DNA from: Octopus sinensis
Taxonomy: Eukaryota
Assembly: GCF_006345805.1 (NCBI RefSeq)
Contig: NW_021828829.1
Coordinates: forward strand, 1-7,601
Direction of reading: 5' to 3'
DNA length: 7,601 nt
The position numbers were made by a program, and so were the translations under genes. This document shows, piece after piece, positions 1 to 7,601 of the stretch. The notes beneath the pieces are model-generated. The model did not search any database, was not told the DNA's origin, and worked only from the letters and a program-made list of their open reading frames with translations. Positions within the stretch are counted from its first letter, which is position 1. The number at the start of each line of letters is the position of its first letter.

Positions 1-129
1 TTCTAGCACAGGCCATATATTATTCATATATAAGTACTTAAAAGGCGAAGTATGTACTAGAAACACAGAAGCTTGATAAATTTAGTGAAATGAAAATAAA
101 AAACTTTTACTAACTCAGTTCTTCTTAGA

Positions 130-131
<2 letters not shown>

Positions 132-186
<55 letters not shown>
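132..186. repeat. (TA)n microsatellite
   Basis: Direct reading; one interruption. Confidence 0.98.
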
Positions 187-204
187 CATTTTTCAAATCC
201 TGGC

Positions 205-285
205 ACGTGGCCAACGATTTTGGAGGCTGGTTGACAATATAGACCCCAGTACGTGAGTTGTATTTCATTTTATCAAGACTGAATC
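205..285. mobile_element. Possible decayed fragment of a second octopus SINE family
   Basis: GACCCCAGTACGTGAGTTGTATTTCATTTTATC resembles the remembered motif GACCCCAGT..ACTGGTACTTATTTTATCGACC of an abundant cephalopod SINE. There is no second copy in the window to confirm it. Confidence 0.35.
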
Positions 286-486
286 CAGGACTAAATTCGC
301 AGCGGAAAGTCTTCTCTCGTCCAACTGCTCTCGAACGTGTTGAGTATGATTTTACTCGAATATAATTCATTCAGCGTTGTTTCGTGTGACATACCTTAAT
401 TCTAATTTCACCAAGTTTTCCGCACACCGGCATACGTTTCCTACACAGTCTTAATAAGAATAATTTCATTATAACTGGGTTGTGGG

Positions 487-908
487 CAGCGCTTGATTAA
501 CCATTAAGCAAAATAAGTAGCTTGTGCCATCAACGGGAGGGGGCACCACGGAAATGGTAAGTGGTTTACGGTACAAAAGAAATCACTTTAAACTAGCTAA
601 AATGATACTAGGGATGCCCTATCTCAACTAAATATAGAAGCAGATGTATTACGTAAGATTAATCATGAGGATCTGATTAAAGAATTTGATATAAAAAAAG
701 TAGGAGGAAACTTTTCAAATATAAAGTGAAATTATGCAAAAGTAAAGATTATTTTCCATCTATCTGTTAGTTTTGTTTTATTTTTAAAAATAACAAATTT
801 ATTTAATGTTTTATTGTTGTTTATAATTTAAATTACATATATGTGGGGGTTGATAGCATCAAAAGCTTTTGAGTGCATAGGGTCACAATGGGTCTTCATT
901 CGACCCTG
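487..908 (+). mobile_element. Old non-autonomous hAT-superfamily DNA transposon (internal deletion derivative) with transposase C-terminal remnant
   Basis: Degenerate TIRs CAGCGCTTGATTAA (487-500) and TTCATTCGACCCTG (895-908), 8/14 complementary. 8-bp flanks GTTGTGGG / GCTGTTAG (5/8) fit a decayed hAT TSD. 610-699 translates RDALSQLNIEADVLRKINHEDLIKEFDIKK, then after a frameshift SRRKLFK, resembling the L..L.IE......I..F...K.RR end of hAT (Tip100/ZMYM-like) transposases. Confidence 0.7.
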
Positions 909-934
909 GCTGTTAGTGTCTGAGTTGGTTTTTC

Positions 935-973
935 ACTGCTGACGAAGTAAAACAACACAGAAACACGTGCGGT
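935..973 (+). ncRNA. Degenerate minimal type I hammerhead-like motif
   Basis: ACTG(935-938)-CTGACGA(939-945)-A-GT-AAAACAAC-AC-A-GAAAC(960-964)-ACGTG-CGGT(970-973). Stem I ACTG/CGGT includes one G-U pair; palindrome CACGTG. The NUH triplet is defective (GUG, or loss of TC from GTC). Confidence 0.45.
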
Positions 974-1092
974 CTACGATCCGATGACATCATTCGCAGC
1001 CCATTTTGTGTCTTTATTCGCGTCTGAGAAGAGAATTGTTTTGCCTGTGATTTCCTCCGCAGCGGTAATGCACGCAAACGTGTTGAATATGA

Positions 1093-1532
1093 CTACTCTC
1101 TTTACTCTTTTACTTGTTTCAGTCAATTGACAGTGGCCATACTGGAGCACCGCCTTTAGTCGAGCAAATCGACCCCAGGACTTATTCTTTGGAAGCCTAG
1201 TACTTATTCTATCGGTCTGTTTTGCCGGGGACGTAAACACACCAGTATCGGTTGTCAAGTGATGTTGGGGGTACAAACACAGACACACAAACATACACAC
1301 ATACACACACATACACACACACGCACACACACACACACACACACACCATATATATATATATATATATATACGACGGGATTCTTTCAGTTTCCGTCTACCA
1401 AATCCACTCACAAGTCTTTGGTCGACCCGAGGCTATCGTAGAAAACATTTGCTCAAGGTGCCATGCAGTGGGACTGAACCCGGAACCATGTAGTTTGCAA
1501 GCAAGCTACTTACCACACAGCCACTCCCCGCT
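1093..1532 (-). mobile_element. Near full-length tRNA-derived CORE-type SINE (octopus OR-like family) with internal (CA)n(TA)n tract
   Basis: Minus-strand head has A box TGGCTGTGTGG (1513-1523) and B-box-like GGTTCAGTCCC (1470-1480), then CORE-like CCTTGAGCAAATGTTTTCT. Central microsatellite ~1276-1370; 3' tail of short AAAAGAGT-like repeats (~1094-1115). Possible short TSD TATGA (1088-1092 / 1533-1537). Aligns with the copies at 5302-5457 and 6207-6517. Confidence 0.9.
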
Positions 1533-1824
1533 TATGAAATTACTTTAAACATTGTGCCAGCCGAGATCTAAGCAGCTTCATTATTTAAAGTTTCTACAAG
1601 CGCTGTTGTTTCTCTTTCTTCAAACTTACTTCTACTTACACTTGAGGCGGCATTCACCTGGGGGGGGGGGGTCGAATCCGCTCCGACAAAACGGGTTCAC
1701 CATATCGCTCACGGATTAAGCGTCATTCGCTTCTGTTTGCAACTGAAGTATACATTGTACCAAGAAATTTTTATAAGTTTCGAATCCAGTTTTAGATTCA
1801 CTTAAAAGGTGCTAATCCTCCACG

Positions 1825-1917
1825 CTTTACAGTAGAAGACACTTGTGAGAGATGACACTCGAATTCTATCCGAAATCGTGCGGTTGCCAAGTGTTGAAAC
1901 CAAACTGCTACACGGGC
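1825..1917 (-). mobile_element. Old, decayed head fragment of the same SINE family
   Basis: AGTAGAAGACACTTG (1831-1845) followed by CCGAAATCGTGCGGTTGCCAAG, which parallels CCGGAATCGTGTGGCTGGGAAG in the 5302-5457 copy at similar spacing. Confidence 0.55.
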
Positions 1918-2074
1918 AATGCGCAATGGTGTCTGAGAAGCCGTCCATAGGGCTGGGACCTCGATGGATGCAAAACTACTGGTCACTCTATGACCGGACA
2001 TATATCTAACTGCTTATAAATACATTACGGCTCTATGCTTTGCTTCTTTTTCGGATATACGATGCACTGACAAT

Positions 2075-2085
2075 ACACTCACACA

Positions 2086-2119
<34 letters not shown>
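2075..2119. repeat. (CA)n microsatellite
   Basis: Direct reading. Confidence 0.97.
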
Positions 2120-2290
2120 ATTATTACTAATCAGTAGATGTCACAGTGTGACTCAAGGCCTGACAGCTTCGTGCATTGACACTTATCAAACAGATAAGTT
2201 GAGTCACTCTGTAACTTCTGACGATTAATAATGAAAAAAAAACGTATATAAACTATTATAATCTAACTTCCTTGTTTTCTTCAACAAACC

Positions 2291-2334
<44 letters not shown>

Positions 2335-2343
2335 TATATATAT

Positions 2344-2390
<47 letters not shown>

Positions 2391-2430
2391 GTATGTATAT
2401 GTATATATATGTGTATATATGTATGTATGT
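2291..2430. repeat. Compound (TA)n/(TATG)n microsatellite
   Basis: Direct reading. Confidence 0.97.
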
Positions 2431-2697
2431 GCGTGTATAAACAACCGAATACGTTCTCTGTTGATATATCATATAGCTATGTGTAAGTGTATATACAAAG
2501 AGAGATAGGCGGTGACATAATCAAGTAGAGGCACAAATAAACACGCAAGAATGTAAGTAGGTGGACTTAGACAGAGAGATGTCAAAATAATATGTCGATA
2601 TATTTGTATAGATCAATAACAATATAAATACATACATACTTACGTGTGTGTGTGGTGAAGGGAAAACAAACGTAGTTACATAAGGGACTTCAATGCG

Positions 2698-2707
2698 TAT
2701 ATATATA

Positions 2708-2740
<33 letters not shown>

Positions 2741-2810
2741 ATATGTATGTAGTATGTATGTATGTATGTATGTATGTATGTATGTATGTATGTATGTATA
2801 TGTACATGTA
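2698..2810. repeat. Compound (TA)n + (TATG)n microsatellite
   Basis: Direct reading; a further (TA)n tract lies at 2910-2931. Confidence 0.97.
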
Positions 2811-3451
2811 AATAAAGGAGGGTGGGAAAAAGAAGCTTTGAAAGATAAAGTGACAGGGCAAATAGACAAGATGATATACAAACAATATGAAGCACAGAGA
2901 GAAAATAACATATATATATATATATATATATTATGTAGGATGTAAACGAGAGGGAAGTAGAGGTGCGGAGAGAGAGAATGTGATTGGTAGATGAGTAGGG
3001 GATGGCTGAGGTGAAGGGAAAAGGTTGAGAAGAAAGCTGAGTCGATATTTCTAGAAGGAAAGGCGAGATAGAAATGATATAATATGAAAAATCAAGATTG
3101 ATGAAAGAATGTTAGAATGAGAGGAATAATGGAATAATATCTTGGAGAAGGGAAGACTCAGGGACGAGTAAGTGTGAAAGTGTGATAGTGGCATGTGATA
3201 CATACATACATCCATACATACATACATATATGTATGCATAGCTGGGTGTGTATATGTGTTTTTATATATGTATACACAGGTAAGGATATATGTATGCACG
3301 TGCAGGAAAAACTTTATATACACATAAGCTTGAACGTATATAAGTGCATAATAGATTTATACATACATGGATATATATGATTATATTATGTACATAAGAA
3401 TGTATATATATATAATGTAAATAATAAATAATATAATATATATATATGCAT

Positions 3452-3748
3452 ATACACGCTACGCGCACCTTCGTTTTGGGATCATCACTACTTTCTTATC
3501 TCCCCTTCTTCCTAGCTCTTCTGTCTGACCACCTCTGTCCGGCATTCGACATGATAGATCACTAGCCACTATACCTTTTTCTATTTTCTCTCCCTGTTTA
3601 TTTCTGTGTTCCTTTCTGCTGAAGAGCGTAGGCTCGAAACGTAAAAGACTTTCTCACTTCCCGGGCGTTAAACTAATACATCTGTTTGTTGTTTATACAC
3701 CCGTCTTCATCTTTTGTTTTGTTTGTTTTTCTGTAAATACCATCTATA
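3452..3748 (+). mobile_element. Short pyrimidine-rich interspersed repeat carrying a hammerhead-like motif; probable Penelope-like terminal repeat remnant
   Basis: A ~300-bp complex-sequence island between TA-rich tracts, containing the 3612-3647 motif followed by a T-rich tail. Family identity is inferred from the known association of minimal hammerheads with Penelope-like elements. Boundaries are approximate. Confidence 0.5.
3612..3647 (+). ncRNA. Minimal type I hammerhead-like motif (variant core)
   Basis: Stem I CTTT(3612-3615)/AAAG(3644-3647); core CTGCTGA (3616-3622, A6C); extra A3623; stem II GAGC-GTAG-GCTC (3624-3635); GAAAC-GT-A with a loopless ACGT palindrome and GUA triplet (3641-3643). 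An overlapping canonical CTGAAGA box (3619-3625) gives an alternative register. Confidence 0.6.
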
Positions 3749-3766
3749 TATCTATATTTATATATA

Positions 3767-4313
3767 TACATTTAAACACATTAAAATGTTTCCATCATAG
3801 GAATCCCTTACGCTAGAAAGAACAGCTTTAAATGTACACTGTATTTTATATGAAAAATATATAGTCACTTGAGTAATTTTTCTATACGCTAGGCCACTGG
3901 TAGTAAAAATTTCTAAAATCTTTATTACTCTGATATTATTAATTATGTATAATGATTTCTGGAAGATTCGTTCGAAAAAATTGCCGGCAATCTTTAGCTG
4001 TCGACAAAAATAACTGCGCTTGCCCGGTGGATTTGAAAAAATTAAAATGTATAAGCAAGAGACACATGCTGGATTGGTCTCGTGTTTATATGTTAAATCT
4101 TGGCGTACCTGTTGAAGAAGACGTCGCCTAGCAAATTATTTTATTTGCTAAAATAAGTCAGAAACCATGGTCCAGGAAATAGATGATAAATGTTATTTTT
4201 CATTCCCTTCAAGAATTTATCCCTAATTAGTGGTTTTGGATTTTAGCTGTTCTTTCTAGCGTAAGAGATTCCTATGATGGAAACCTTTAATGTGTTTAAA
4301 TGTACACTGTATT
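3767..4313 (+). mobile_element. Penelope-like element pseudo-LTR / retrozyme-like non-autonomous unit with inverted 5' duplication
   Basis: ~60-bp inverted repeat 3767-3827 / 4245-4304 (about 3 differences). Exact 19-bp direct repeat TTTAAATGTACACTGTATT at 3827-3845 and 4295-4313 (period 468 bp). Internal hammerhead at 4108-4176. Both flanks are (TA)n. No ORF. Confidence 0.65.
4108..4176 (+). ncRNA. Type I hammerhead ribozyme-like motif (C3U core variant, palindromic stem III)
   Basis: Stem I CCTG(4108-4111)/CAGG(4173-4176); core TTGAAGA (4112-4118); A4119; stem II GAC/GTC (4120-4122/4157-4159) enclosing an 8-bp hairpin TAGCAAAT/ATTTGCTA; A4160; GAAAC (4161-4165); CATG; GTC triplet (4170-4172). 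Predicted cut after 4172. Confidence 0.75.
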
Positions 4314-4315
4314 AT

Positions 4316-4357
<42 letters not shown>

Positions 4358-4459
4358 TAGAATATATATATATATATAACTATATTATGTATGTTTGTAT
4401 GTATGTATGTATGTATGTGTATGTATGTATGTATGTATGTATGTATATATGTATGTATG
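4313..4459. repeat. Compound (TA)n + (TATG)n microsatellite
   Basis: Direct reading. Confidence 0.97.
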
Positions 4460-4591
4460 AAACAATGGTATTACATTTAAAGCGCTACACCTACATACTC
4501 CGAGTACTATAATGACAACTTTTTACTATTTATTCTAAATTAAAATATATATATGTATGTATGAATGTATGTATTCATACATACATATGTT

Positions 4592-5148
4592 TGTGTCAGA
4601 TCACTTTCGAGTGCTACTGGTAACATATAACCCAGTACAACCTGTTGCATGGTCGGTTCGTCGGCGACTAAACCGGCAACCCCACCAAGCTTGCTTGGTG
4701 AGGAGGGTGTTTATTGGACACCCTGCGGGATGAAAAATAAAACCCGTCAAAGGGCGGAGGAACTCTTGAGAGTCAACGGCCAACCAATAAATGTGTTAAG
4801 GCTGTATCATGCGCGGGGACATAGAAATAATCGGACTGAATACCCGATCGCGCGGTTAAACCATTGGGAGTGAAGGACTCCTAGCCTTTGTTAGGGCATC
4901 TTTCTAGGAGAAGGTAACTCAGGTAACTGGGATAACTCCGACATAAAACCTGCTGCTCAGTGGTTACCAATGATGTTGACTTGTTCTTCTTTTCGGATTA
5001 TGGCTACTGTTGCTTAGTGAGTGGGATTGACTCAGTGCATAGCCTTTCCCCACTTAAAAAAAATTTCTTGCACAGCCATTGCACGATAACAACATTGATT
5101 AATCTTCGTGCAATGTCCATACTCGATAAGGAGGGGGCAGCCACCACC
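4592..5148 (+). mobile_element. Probable 5' UTR and first codons of an RTE-type LINE (structured, higher-GC block)
   Basis: Chain of hairpins at 4602-4782. GGGCATCTTTCTAGGAGAAGGTAACTC...AAAACC (4894-4950) resembles a motif I recall from RTE 5' regions (GGCAACC..CTAGGAGAAGGAAAACTC..AAACC). Candidate ATG at 5113 ([12 protein letters not shown]) is cut off by a microsatellite. Same strand as the downstream RT. Confidence 0.5.
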
Positions 5149-5229
5149 ATGTATGTATATATGTATGTATATATATATGTATATATATGTATATATGTAT
5201 ATATGTATGTGTGTATATATGTATATATG

Positions 5230-5286
<57 letters not shown>

Positions 5287-5457
5287 GCATGCACTTATAT
5301 ATACGACGGGTTTCTTCCAGTTTCCATCTACTAAATCCACCCGTAATTTTTTGGGTGGTCCGAGGCTATAGAAGAAGCTTGCCCAAGGCGCCACACAGTG
5401 GGACTGAACCCGGAATCGTGTGGCTGGGAAGCAAGCGTATTACCACACAATCGCCTG
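5149..5457 (-). mobile_element. Same SINE family, 5' half only (tRNA head, CORE region, expanded microsatellite); 3' tail absent
   Basis: 5302-5457 matches 1369-1530 (TACGACGGG..CAGTTTCC..CGAGGCTAT..CAAGG..CAGTGGGACTGAACCCGGAA..TACCACACA). To the left of the (TA/TATG)n tract at 5149-5300 there is no SINE tail sequence. Confidence 0.85.
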
Positions 5458-5480
5458 TATATATATATAGAGAAAGAGAG

Positions 5481-5555
<75 letters not shown>

Positions 5556-5578
5556 CAGACAGATAGATAGATAGATAT
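5458..5578. repeat. (TA)n-(GA)n-(GATA)n compound microsatellite
   Basis: Direct reading; long GATA array with two GACA variants. Confidence 0.98.
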
Positions 5579-5802
5579 AGTAGCAGCGTTAGATGAAAGG
5601 TTAGTGAAACCCTTACGGTGTCCCCAATCTCCTCCACTATTATTATGCATCTTCACACCGGATGTTTTATGTTGACATAATACATCTTCAGGTCATTTTC
5701 CCTATTCTTGCATTAATTATCTCTTTTTCTTTCCTTTCTTTTCTTTTTGTCTTTTGTTTGATTCACTATTTCTCACCATTCATACCCATATATAAATCAC
5801 TA

Positions 5803-5804
<2 letters not shown>

Positions 5805-5837
<33 letters not shown>
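5805..5837. repeat. (TTA)n trinucleotide microsatellite
   Basis: Direct reading; produces the poly-Tyr in ORF 5662-6294. Confidence 0.97.
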
Positions 5838-5838
<1 letters not shown>

Positions 5839-6107
5839 TCTTATTACGAGGATGATAGTCACAGGATTATATCTTGTCAACTTCCGGTGGAGACAATTAG
5901 AACCTTTCTTAAAACAATAGACTTTAACCTGAATACACAAACCCAAATCCTGAATTATTTAACAGATATTATTCACAGCTCATTTTGGTGTAAGAGGGCT
6001 TATGTACACTCCCCACCCCGACAACACACATTCACGTGTTGTCCTATATGCGTATGTGTTAGCAACTTTATCTATGCATCTACAGTGGTTTGGCTAAGAC
6101 GTTACAG

Positions 6108-6150
6108 CACTGGTTCTGAAACCCGGAGCCGTGCGGCCCTCGGGTGTCCG
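6108..6150 (+). mobile_element. Possible decayed terminal sequence of a Charlie-type hAT DNA transposon
   Basis: CACTGGTTCTGAAACCCGGAGCCGTGCGGCCCTCGGGTGTCCG resembles the CAGTGGTTCTCAAAC..GGGGTCCGCGGACCCC..GGGGTCCG termini of Charlie-like elements. No partner end is seen. Confidence 0.3.
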
Positions 6151-6206
6151 TATAAGAATTTGTTGTTAAAATTTGTGCGCATTGAATCGGTTGTACTTGT
6201 ACAATT

Positions 6207-6409
6207 CCTTTACTCGTTTCAGTCATTTGACTGTGGCCATGCTGGAGCACCGCCTTTAGTTGAACGAATCGACCTCAGGACTTGTTCTTTGTAAGCCTAG
6301 TACTTATTCTGTCGGTCTGTTTTGCCAAAACTGCTCAGATACAGGGACGTAAGCACAGCAACATCGGTTGTCAAGCTATGATGGGGGGGGGGCAAATACA
6401 GACACACAA

Positions 6410-6443
<34 letters not shown>

Positions 6444-6517
6444 GACAGGCTTCTTTCAGTTTCCGTCTACTAAATCCACTCACAAGTTTTTAGTCTGTCC
6501 GAGGCTATAGTAGAAGA
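6207..6517 (-). mobile_element. Same SINE family, 3' part only; tRNA head lost at a junction with the LINE RT
   Basis: Matches 1107-1443 (GTTTCAGTCA..TGGCCAT..CTGGAGCACCGCCTTTAGT..AAGCCTAGTACTTATTCT..TCGGTTGTCAAG..AAATCCACTCACAAG..CGAGGCTATAGTAGAAGA), then switches abruptly to LINE coding sequence. Carries ~16 bp (6328-6343) that is missing from the first copy. Confidence 0.9.
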
Positions 6518-7601
6518 ACTAACAGCAGCCACCAAGCAACTAAAAGCCTCGAAAGCATTTGGTCCCGACAACATCCCGGCTATAATTTGGAAGGATGAGA
6601 TTTCACCCACTTTTGCTCAACTCTGCAACCACACACTTTCCACCTTGTCGCTCCAAAGATTTGGCACCAATCTCAAATGATTCCAATACCCAAAAAAGGC
6701 GATTTATCCCTCGTCACCAACTACAGGGGTATATCTCTAATGTCAATTGCTGCAAAACTGTACAACAAACTGATCCTAAATCGTCTTGTCCTTTTTGTTG
6801 AACCTTTGCTCCGAAAGAACCAAAATGGATTCAGACATGGGCGCTCAACGCTGAGCCAGATACTATGCCTGCGCAGACTTATTGAAGAATCAAAAGCATT
6901 TAATCACGATCTTGCAATGGTATTTGTAGACTTTTCTAAAGCGTTCGACTCTGTAGATAGGTACAAGTTGTTTGAAATCCTTAAGCTCTATGGGATACCA
7001 GACAAAATCATTTCTGCCATCAAGGTCCTCTACACAGATACGTCTTCAACCATCTTAACTCCTGACGGAGAAACATCATATTTCTCAATCAAAGCCGGAA
7101 TACTGCAGGGAGACACACTCGCCCCATTTCTTTTCATCATTGTTGTTGATTATGTGCTACGTATGTCAGTTGATACCATCTCTGGCAAGGGCTTTGAAAT
7201 AAAACCAAGAAGAAGTTCCAGACACCCAGCTGAGTACTTGACAGACACTGACTTTGCTGACGACATCGCTCTTATCAGTGATTCTCTCTCCAATGCCCAG
7301 TCTCTTTTACAATCTCTTGAACAAGCCTCAAATTGTTAGGTCTTTACCTCAATGAGGCCAAACTGAATACATAAACAAGTGCTGTCCAACAGTGATTGCA
7401 TCATCCATACTCTCAACAATGCACCTTAAATATGGTTTCTGATTATAAATATCTTGGGTCATACATATCATCATCTGGAAAAGACTTTCTAACTAGAAAG
7501 GGTATGGCCTGGTCAGCCTGTAATGACATGCATAAGATCTGGTCATCAAATCTAAGTAGAGACTTCAAACTTAAGATCTTCAAAGCCACAGTCGAACCAA
7601 T
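6513..7601 (+). pseudogene. Non-LTR retrotransposon (LINE, RTE clade) reverse transcriptase region; 5'-truncated, frameshifted, continues past the window end
   Basis: ORF 6677-7339 has the RT motifs IPIPKKGD, NYRGISL, QNGFRHGRST, FVDFSKAFDSV, GILQGDTLAPFLF and DFADD. Upstream in another frame (6513-6597): EELTAATKQLKASKAFGPDNIPAIIWKD (pre-RT GPD motif). Downstream in shifted frames: GLYLNEAK, TEYINK and (7432-7599) MVSDYKYLGSYISSSGKDFLTRKGMAWSACNDMHKIWSSNLSRDFKLKIFKATVEP. RTE assignment is from motif style, not a search. Confidence 0.95.

Follow-up and report, generated by a model that had tools for sequence, protein, structure and literature searches.

Small hammerhead ribozymes are found at the ends of Penelope-like elements (PLEs) across animals (Cervera and de la Peña 2014, PMC4209133). 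The consensus of these minimal hammerheads (min-HHRs) has an extra base after A9, a G10.1-C11.1 pair, a stem I of 4-5 bp and a palindromic stem III; among the 56 rows of Fig. S3 in that study, the extra base 9.1 is present in 54 (as A in 30), A6 is present in all 56 and one GAAA cell reads AGAAA. The taxa covered range from cnidarians to reptiles and include two molluscs, with no cephalopod row. The literature on PLE hammerheads offers a dimer model and reports that their activity in vitro is low; inverted 5'-truncated copies and partial-tandem repeats of PLEs are described as well. Short PLE-derived units bearing such motifs have also been published. Non-LTR retrozymes (PMC7229834; Li et al. 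2026, 10.64898/2026.07.22.740005) are short, non-coding, PLE-related units with one type I hammerhead each, and the hammerhead of phage Bcep176 has a natural change of A6 to C (PMC3088659; PMC7151607).

We analysed a window of 7,601 nucleotides from Octopus sinensis (contig NW_021828829.1, positions 1 to 7,601), in which a sequence-only reading had placed three hammerhead-like motifs of Penelope type. All three were present on the + strand, at 935-973 (motif 1), 3612-3647 (motif 2) and 4108-4176 (motif 3). In each, an A directly follows the 7-nt box (positions 946, 3623 and 4119), stem II begins with G, and the G10.1-C11.1 pair opens a helix II that is 2, 4 and 3 bp long in the window copies of motifs 1, 2 and 3, respectively. 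Stem I is 4 bp in all three, with one G-U pair in motif 1; it cannot be extended and lies within the PLE helix I norm of about 3-5 bp. The palindrome that had been attributed to stem III of every motif holds for motifs 2 (4 nt) and 3 (8 nt), where it is centred on A15.1-U16.1, but not for motif 1, where the span 963-968 is not self-complementary and the proposed palindrome (964-969) sits one base off-centre. The assignment to the Penelope type is borne out, because base 9.1, G10.1-C11.1, the short helix I and the palindromic stem III make up the published PLE consensus (PMC4209133), and the presence of many unrelated families in a genome, mostly as solitary truncated copies, is a further likeness.

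These data make it highly probable that the motifs are minimal type I hammerheads. They likely represent the pseudo-LTR ribozymes of three families that are unrelated to one another and either Penelope-like or Penelope-derived and non-autonomous; we infer PLE ancestry for each. The repeats that carry the motifs (elements 1-3) are distinct, and in each the motif sits close to the 3' end, with position 17 falling 97-140 nt from it. The claim that the motifs come from different high-copy repeat families agrees with the family depth seen for motifs 2 and 3, and their flanks are indeed dissimilar: five of six flank pairs score at shuffle level, and the sixth, motif 1 against motif 3 upstream, is marginal (4 of 200 shuffles reach its score). 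Unlike published PLEs with min-HHRs, the elements here come without a PLE ORF: the window contains neither a PLE reverse transcriptase nor a GIY-YIG ORF, which would be expected if the copies are truncated or non-autonomous, and a Pfam search of eight ORFs around the motifs returned no informative match. A reverse transcriptase at 6599-7336 was considered as the PLE partner of the motifs and rejected; it is LINE/R2-like, with R2 and LINE-1 proteins as its best matches.

If a tandem transcript were active, the palindromic stem III would bring two motif copies together, with slow cleavage predicted after position 17. The copies in the window occur singly and have stem III spans of unlike length and sequence, so they would not complement each other. 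Predicted homodimers of motif 3 pair through the palindrome. For motif 2, the homodimer of lowest predicted energy is joined by stem II rather than stem III, which counts against this reading, as does a recent preprint in which eight of nine predicted dimers did not cleave (Li et al. 2026, 10.64898/2026.07.22.740005). The clustering of the elements may reflect high copy number together with insertion into (TA)n: one such tract separates elements 2 and 3 (3741-3768), and others lie at 3403-3447 and 4313-4458, so that element 2 is flanked by (TA)n.

Motif 3 comprises stem I (4108-4111/4173-4176), a box with U3 and G8 (4112-4118), A9.1 (4119), a long stem II region (4120-4159) that encloses an 8-bp hairpin, an extra A (4160), GAA (4161-4163), the 8-nt palindrome (4164-4171) and C17 (4172), all on the + strand. 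Its box and A9.1 match letter for letter the Saccoglossus(1) row (U3-G8) of the PMC4209133 table, whereas its 40-nt stem II region, the internal hairpin and the extra A before GAAA set it apart from PLE min-HHRs. At 4123 the family has T (98-100%, four of four runs), which pairs with A4156 and gives stem II a length of 5 bp instead of 3, and the free position 7 (4116) is variable in the family (41-75% T). U3 appears to be the family letter, as 4112 is absent among the 40 of 96 difference rows listed. Judged by its letters, motif 3 is a good PLE min-HHR member. Element 3 (3827-4312, + strand) consists of a 468-nt unit and an 18-nt terminal direct repeat (3827-3844 equals 4295-4312). Head to head with it lies an inverted, 5'-truncated copy of its 3' end (3767-3827 on the - strand against 4245-4304; 61 nt, 95% identity, E = 5e-21). 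Element 3 therefore shows both a partial tandem and an inverted 5'-truncated copy, as PLEs do. Some contigs run from 4282 into 3827 or from 4286 into 3831; others bridge 3925-4206.

Motif 1 comprises stem I (935-938/970-973), the box (939-945), A9.1 (946), a stem II of 2 bp (947-958), an extra A (959), GAA (960-962), the non-palindromic stem III span (963-968) and position 17 (969), again on the + strand. H17 is missing, with G at 969, and the 2-bp stem II is weak. We class motif 1 as a decayed look-alike, not an intact min-HHR member, and its ribozyme is most likely dead. The 3' end of element 1 (1058-1092, + strand) extends to 123 nt beyond position 17 and has an upstream copy at 298-349 (+ strand), a terminal direct repeat that differs by a 17-nt indel and whose score was reached by none of 500 shuffles (repeat family D19). 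No inverted partner of element 1 was found, only this terminal direct repeat. A SINE-like repeat follows this 3' end. The stretch 487-908 (boundaries by eye), a putative remnant of what we take to be a hAT-like DNA transposon, likely splits element 1 at a point some 27 nt ahead of motif 1. A Pfam search of this stretch gave no match to support hAT identity, and a terminal inverted repeat test on it was not significant (157 of 500 shuffles reached the score).

It is possible, at somewhat less than even odds, that elements 1 and 3 are non-LTR retrozymes and not the truncated ends that autonomous PLEs leave behind; retrozymes are short non-coding units that make circular RNA and that PLE proteins mobilise. 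This reading would refine the assignment to Penelope-derived families, with which it is compatible. The terminal direct repeats delimit putative units of 468 nt (element 3) and about 320 nt (element 1), sizes within the published range of 51-972 bp, and contigs pass from the end of element 3 back into its start. On the other hand, there is about one unit per place (element 3 amounts to about 1.04 units, short of a tandem of at least two), although the end-to-start joints in other copies of element 3 leave room for arrays elsewhere. In two runs depth is near zero at 3972-4000, so that the 468-nt unit may represent a minor subfamily with a deletion. Classic retrozymes, moreover, have canonical hammerheads with loop-loop contacts, whereas the motifs here are minimal, and circular RNA from elements 1 and 3 is a prediction.

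Element 2 (3450-3740, + strand; depth by bin, four of four runs) is the 3' fragment of a very abundant repeat, with a 5' boundary at 3450 that is the edge of the compared stretch; no inverted or tandem partner of it was found. Motif 2 comprises stem I (3612-3615/3644-3647), the box (3616-3622, with position 6 at 3619), A9.1 (3623), a 4-bp stem II (3624-3635), GAA (3636-3638), the 4-nt palindrome (3639-3642) and A17 (3643), on the + strand. It lacks the A6 of the CUGANGA box that every published row retains: the window copy has C, and T (U6) makes up 95-99% of the family depth in four organisms. Motif 2 is thus best classed as a variant of the PLE min-HHR, not a strict member. The sequence-only reading did not pick out this position, the one family-wide departure. 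The depth of family 2 peaks on the motif, at 1.7-7.8 times the 3' neighbouring bin and 8-42 times the bin 3566-3594, and many of its contigs lose their match at 3609 and 3652, just beyond the motif. As a rough size from summed depth, which is not true copy number, the family has thousands to about 10^5 copies; in three other runs it is roughly 50-100 times family 3, again in summed depth and not copy number.

Two described motifs come close to motif 2. The Neptune-associated motif of Acropora digitifera (PMC4209133 Fig. S3, Table S1) shares with it a 4-bp stem II with seven of eight arm letters equal (by eye), a tetraloop and the same 4-nt palindrome, but keeps A6 and differs in stem I and loop. 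Neptune elements are described as biased to microsatellites. On these letters the Neptune likeness is a lead only, not a clade assignment. The Bcep176 hammerhead has a natural change at position 6, as motif 2 does, and the window copy shares the box CUGCUGA with a mutant tested in the Bcep176 work (PMC3088659; PMC7151607). That hammerhead is a single phage motif with C6, whereas here a high-copy animal family has U as its family letter.

U6 in place of A6 across family 2 is the sole remaining novelty and may be a crippled core; most likely, the core is weak or inactive under Mg2+. It is doubtful, but conceivable, that it is an active natural variant kept by selection, in which A9.1 or a protein or metal cofactor offsets the loss of A6. 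The near-uniform T at 3619 in four organisms argues for this, as do the motif being shared more widely than any other part of the family, the natural A6C hammerhead that cleaves with Mn2+, and the fact that 3619 is the only motif 2 position among the 40 of 96 difference rows listed, which are all that this last point covers. Against it, published hammerheads altered in the CUGA turn show low activity, and a crippled master copy could be amplified in trans. The exact 22-nt family 2 pattern had no match in metagenome contigs and none in viral contigs. A generic U6 pattern matched at least 120 loci in metagenome contigs; among the 120 loci listed, four have 3 bp or more in both stem I and stem II (null mean 1.1, P = 0.024), one has stems of 5 and 6 bp (P = 0.015), and none matched the window by BLAST. 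Also against an active variant, at two metagenome U6 loci the adjoining inverted arm retains A6, so that U6 also arises by simple decay. By sequence, U6 does occur elsewhere, but these loci do not establish family-wide U6 there. The full proposal seems unlikely: that one of the most abundant repeats of this animal lineage has a U6 hammerhead which is the best-preserved part of the family in at least four organisms, is able to cleave as a dimer despite the loss of A6, perhaps with altered metal preference, and is missed by standard descriptors.

Much less probable is that motif 2 should be read in another register, with a box at 3619-3625 that retains A6 and no U6 variant at all. In the window 3619-3625 is a canonical box, and putting the family T at 3619 turns it into the U3 box of motif 3. 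In this register, however, G3618 faces A3644 at the base of stem I, a 3-nt insertion is needed before position 3, and the 4-bp stem II is broken.

The sequence-only reading took the signature to be non-canonical and to mark a lineage-enriched hammerhead subclass, counting A9.1, the 4-bp stem I and the palindrome as common to all three motifs. We consider this very improbable. The extra A before GAAA, found in motifs 1 and 3 only, does exceed its frequency in the published rows (two of three against one of 56). The defining features are, however, the pan-metazoan PLE consensus, published from cnidarians to reptiles, so that Fig. S3 (PMC4209133) largely refutes the subclass, and the core deviations differ by motif (G17 in motif 1, C6 in motif 2, U3 in motif 3). 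Co-orientation was rejected as a signal, since three motifs fall on the same strand by chance with p = 0.25.

A descriptor derived post hoc from the description in that reading and run on the window matched exactly the three motifs, as against none in 300 global and none in 300 local dinucleotide shuffles. A looser one gave four, against shuffle means of 0.04 and 0.06, the fourth match being antisense, within the reverse transcriptase ORF and without a palindrome. A strict CTGANGA descriptor with H17 found no match in the window, and an Rfam search at E up to 10 matched no hammerhead model, only microsatellite-driven and chance matches. Chance matches in AT-rich repeat DNA are the least credible explanation, and for motifs 2 and 3 a refuted one: the descriptor is post hoc, motif 1 fails two features and Rfam gave no hammerhead match, but no match arose in 600 shuffles and motif 3 folds better with its family letters.

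The three-motif signature itself repeats the 2014 result and matters little. The U6 family, with thousands of copies or more, is invisible to searches based on CUGANGA, so that hammerhead counts in such genomes would be too low. It also bears on the open question of whether PLE hammerheads must cleave at all. If the U6 core is dead, a PLE-type family would have multiplied on a massive scale although its ribozyme, with the fold preserved, no longer worked; should the U6 form cleave instead, the hammerhead core would tolerate a change held to be crippling.

The sequence-only reading had claimed three hammerhead-like motifs on the forward strand, at 935–973 (motif 1), 3612–3647 (motif 2) and 4108–4176 (motif 3). 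A descriptor that we wrote from its wording, that is, after the fact, recovered exactly these three motifs and gave no match in 300 global and 300 local dinucleotide shuffles. A looser descriptor gave four matches, where the two kinds of shuffle averaged 0.04 and 0.06. The additional match, antisense within the reverse transcriptase ORF, lacks a palindrome and probably arose by chance. The flanks were also as dissimilar as claimed, with five of six flank pairs at shuffle level and one marginal. The strand shared by the three motifs carried no signal (P = 0.25). Comparison with the Rfam hammerhead models, which the same reading had suggested, gave no hammerhead match for the whole window or for each motif searched singly.

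The common signature had been taken to mark a lineage-enriched subclass. This is unsupported, because the published consensus of Penelope-like elements (PLEs) already carries it. In the relevant passages of Cervera and de la Pena 2014 (PMC4209133), PLE minimal hammerheads have a helix I of 4–5 bp, palindromic positions 15.2–16.2, a conserved base between 9 and 10.1, and G10.1–C11.1. By our hand count of Fig. S3 of that paper, the extra base is found in 54 of 56 rows (30 A, 12 U, 11 C and 1 G). The box in its Saccoglossus(1) row is identical to that of motif 3, and AGAAA stands in one GAAA cell, whose row cannot be fixed. The three motifs are real and mostly already known, their common signature being that of the standard PLE minimal hammerhead. 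In motif 3, U3 occurs together with G8, stem II is long and the 8-nt palindrome is perfect, and the window copy of motif 2 is well formed apart from position 6, where it has C. The box of motif 1 is canonical, but its stem II is just 2 bp, its stem III span lacks self-complementarity and position 17 is occupied by G, a base that established hammerhead rules bar there. The palindrome claimed for it sits one base off-centre, as would follow from either a 2-nt deletion or two substitutions.

The repeat bearing motif 1 has a terminal direct repeat (298–349 and 1058–1092; 0 of 500 shuffles), the two copies of which lie approximately 320 nt apart once a probable insert is removed. It seems to be interrupted by a probable hAT-like remnant at 487–908, whose frameshifted peptide at approximately 601–715 appears to resemble a hAT C terminus; a Pfam search of this insert gave no match. 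For the repeat bearing motif 2 (element 2; approximately 3450–3740), neither an inverted copy nor a terminal direct repeat was found. The repeat bearing motif 3 (element 3; approximately 3827–4312) has an inverted copy of its own 3′ end at 3767–3827 (95% over 61 nt) and a terminal direct repeat of 18 nt, an arrangement that Craig et al. 2021 (PMC8557442) and Arkhipova et al. 2013 (PMC3846280) report for PLEs. Some contigs link the end of element 3 to its start and others bridge 3925–4206, consistent with some copies having a 468-nt unit; this form may be a minor subfamily, as depth is low at 3972–4000. (TA)n tracts flank elements 2 and 3, and we attribute the clustering of the motifs to high copy number together with the known PLE bias towards (TA)n targets, as noted in PMC8557442.

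The surrounding animal DNA is repeat-rich, with microsatellites, SINE-like repeats and one LINE-type reverse transcriptase remnant, and its repeats appear octopus-like. Among the SINE-like repeats, 1106–1271 matches 6206–6387 and 1371–1519 matches 5304–5449; these copies, across 1106–1519, 5304–5449 and 6206–6516, are microsatellite-linked and 78–88% alike. The reverse transcriptase remnant spans 6599–7601 (Pfam RVT_1 at 6599–7336, E = 1e-28), with a frameshift near 7340–7395; its closest solved relatives are R2 and LINE-1 ORF2, and it has no relation to the hammerhead motifs. The forward strand is strongly purine-rich at 2480–3190, between microsatellites (GC skew up to 0.62), and neither an ORF nor a repeat partner was found there. 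The GC-richer, non-coding stretch at 4590–5140 appears to resemble an RTE-type LINE 5′ UTR, a possible site of HDV-like ribozymes; the Rfam search of the window gave no ribozyme match there.

The stretch 3450–4310, which takes in motifs 2 and 3 and leaves motif 1 outside, was found wholly or partly in 20 of 24 listed runs from five organisms, and contigs of four of the 24 (four organisms) were aligned to it at 80% likeness. Among the 40 of 96 family differences listed, the top share reached 0.63 or more in all 12 that were computed; we therefore infer that the list is ranked by share and that unlisted positions, where smaller variants may stay hidden, are replaced in at most about 63% of depth. 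Two of the 40 fall within motif 3. Position 4123 changes from G to T in 98–100% of depth and pairs with A4156, which brings stem II to 5 bp; at position 7, which is free, T makes up 41–75%. One falls within motif 2, at 3619, where C is replaced by T in 95–99% of depth in four of four runs. The family behind motif 2 therefore has U6, whereas all 56 published PLE rows of Fig. S3 have A6 by our hand count. Contig depth is maximal on motif 2, at 1.7–7.8 times the next 3′ bin and 8–42 times the bin 3566–3594, and large contig groups cease matching at 3609 and 3652. Motif 2 looks like the best-conserved part of diverged subfamilies, since 5′ truncation could account for the fall in depth upstream of it but not for the one downstream.

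In the model outlined in the literature, two motif copies in a tandem transcript would form a shared stem III through the palindrome; cleavage of this dimer after position 17 would then cut the RNA down to unit length. In the assays described in PMC4209133, dimers were cleaved at a low level and monomers not at all. Short PLE-derived units have been described as non-LTR retrozymes (PMC7229834), for which a preprint (10.64898/2026.07.22.740005) mentions cleavage of one of nine dimers. Each of the window copies is a solitary insertion, and nothing points to a local role; their stem III spans are 6, 4 and 8 nt for motifs 1, 2 and 3, and the three would not pair in register among themselves. For motif 3 an energy model predicted the stem III dimer, but for motif 2 it favoured a duplex through stem II.

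Changes to the CUGA turn led to low activity in the parts of Perreault 2011 and Roberts 2023 that deal with them, and Naghdi 2020 shows cleavage of A6C with Mn2+ but poor cleavage with Mg2+. Metagenome contigs scanned with a generic U6 pattern gave at least 120 loci, and in four of those listed stems I and II were each 3 bp or longer. At two loci, L018 (355–444) and L062 (331–444), an Acropora-type minimal hammerhead inserted as a hairpin has U6 in its direct arm; U6 looks sporadic there, because the adjacent inverted arm retains A6. A third, L076 (396–436), is a U6 minimal hammerhead with a 5-bp stem I and a 6-bp stem II on an animal-like contig, approximately 170 nt downstream of a peptide that we take to resemble the end of a PLE endonuclease. 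Literature searches at listing level, octopus and cephalopod work included, showed us no PLE family with U6, which does not establish its absence from print, and term look-ups in PMC11014351 and PMC6962438 gave none. The U6 core shared across the motif 2 family, a putative ribozyme, is a modest and apparently new variant with uncertain activity.
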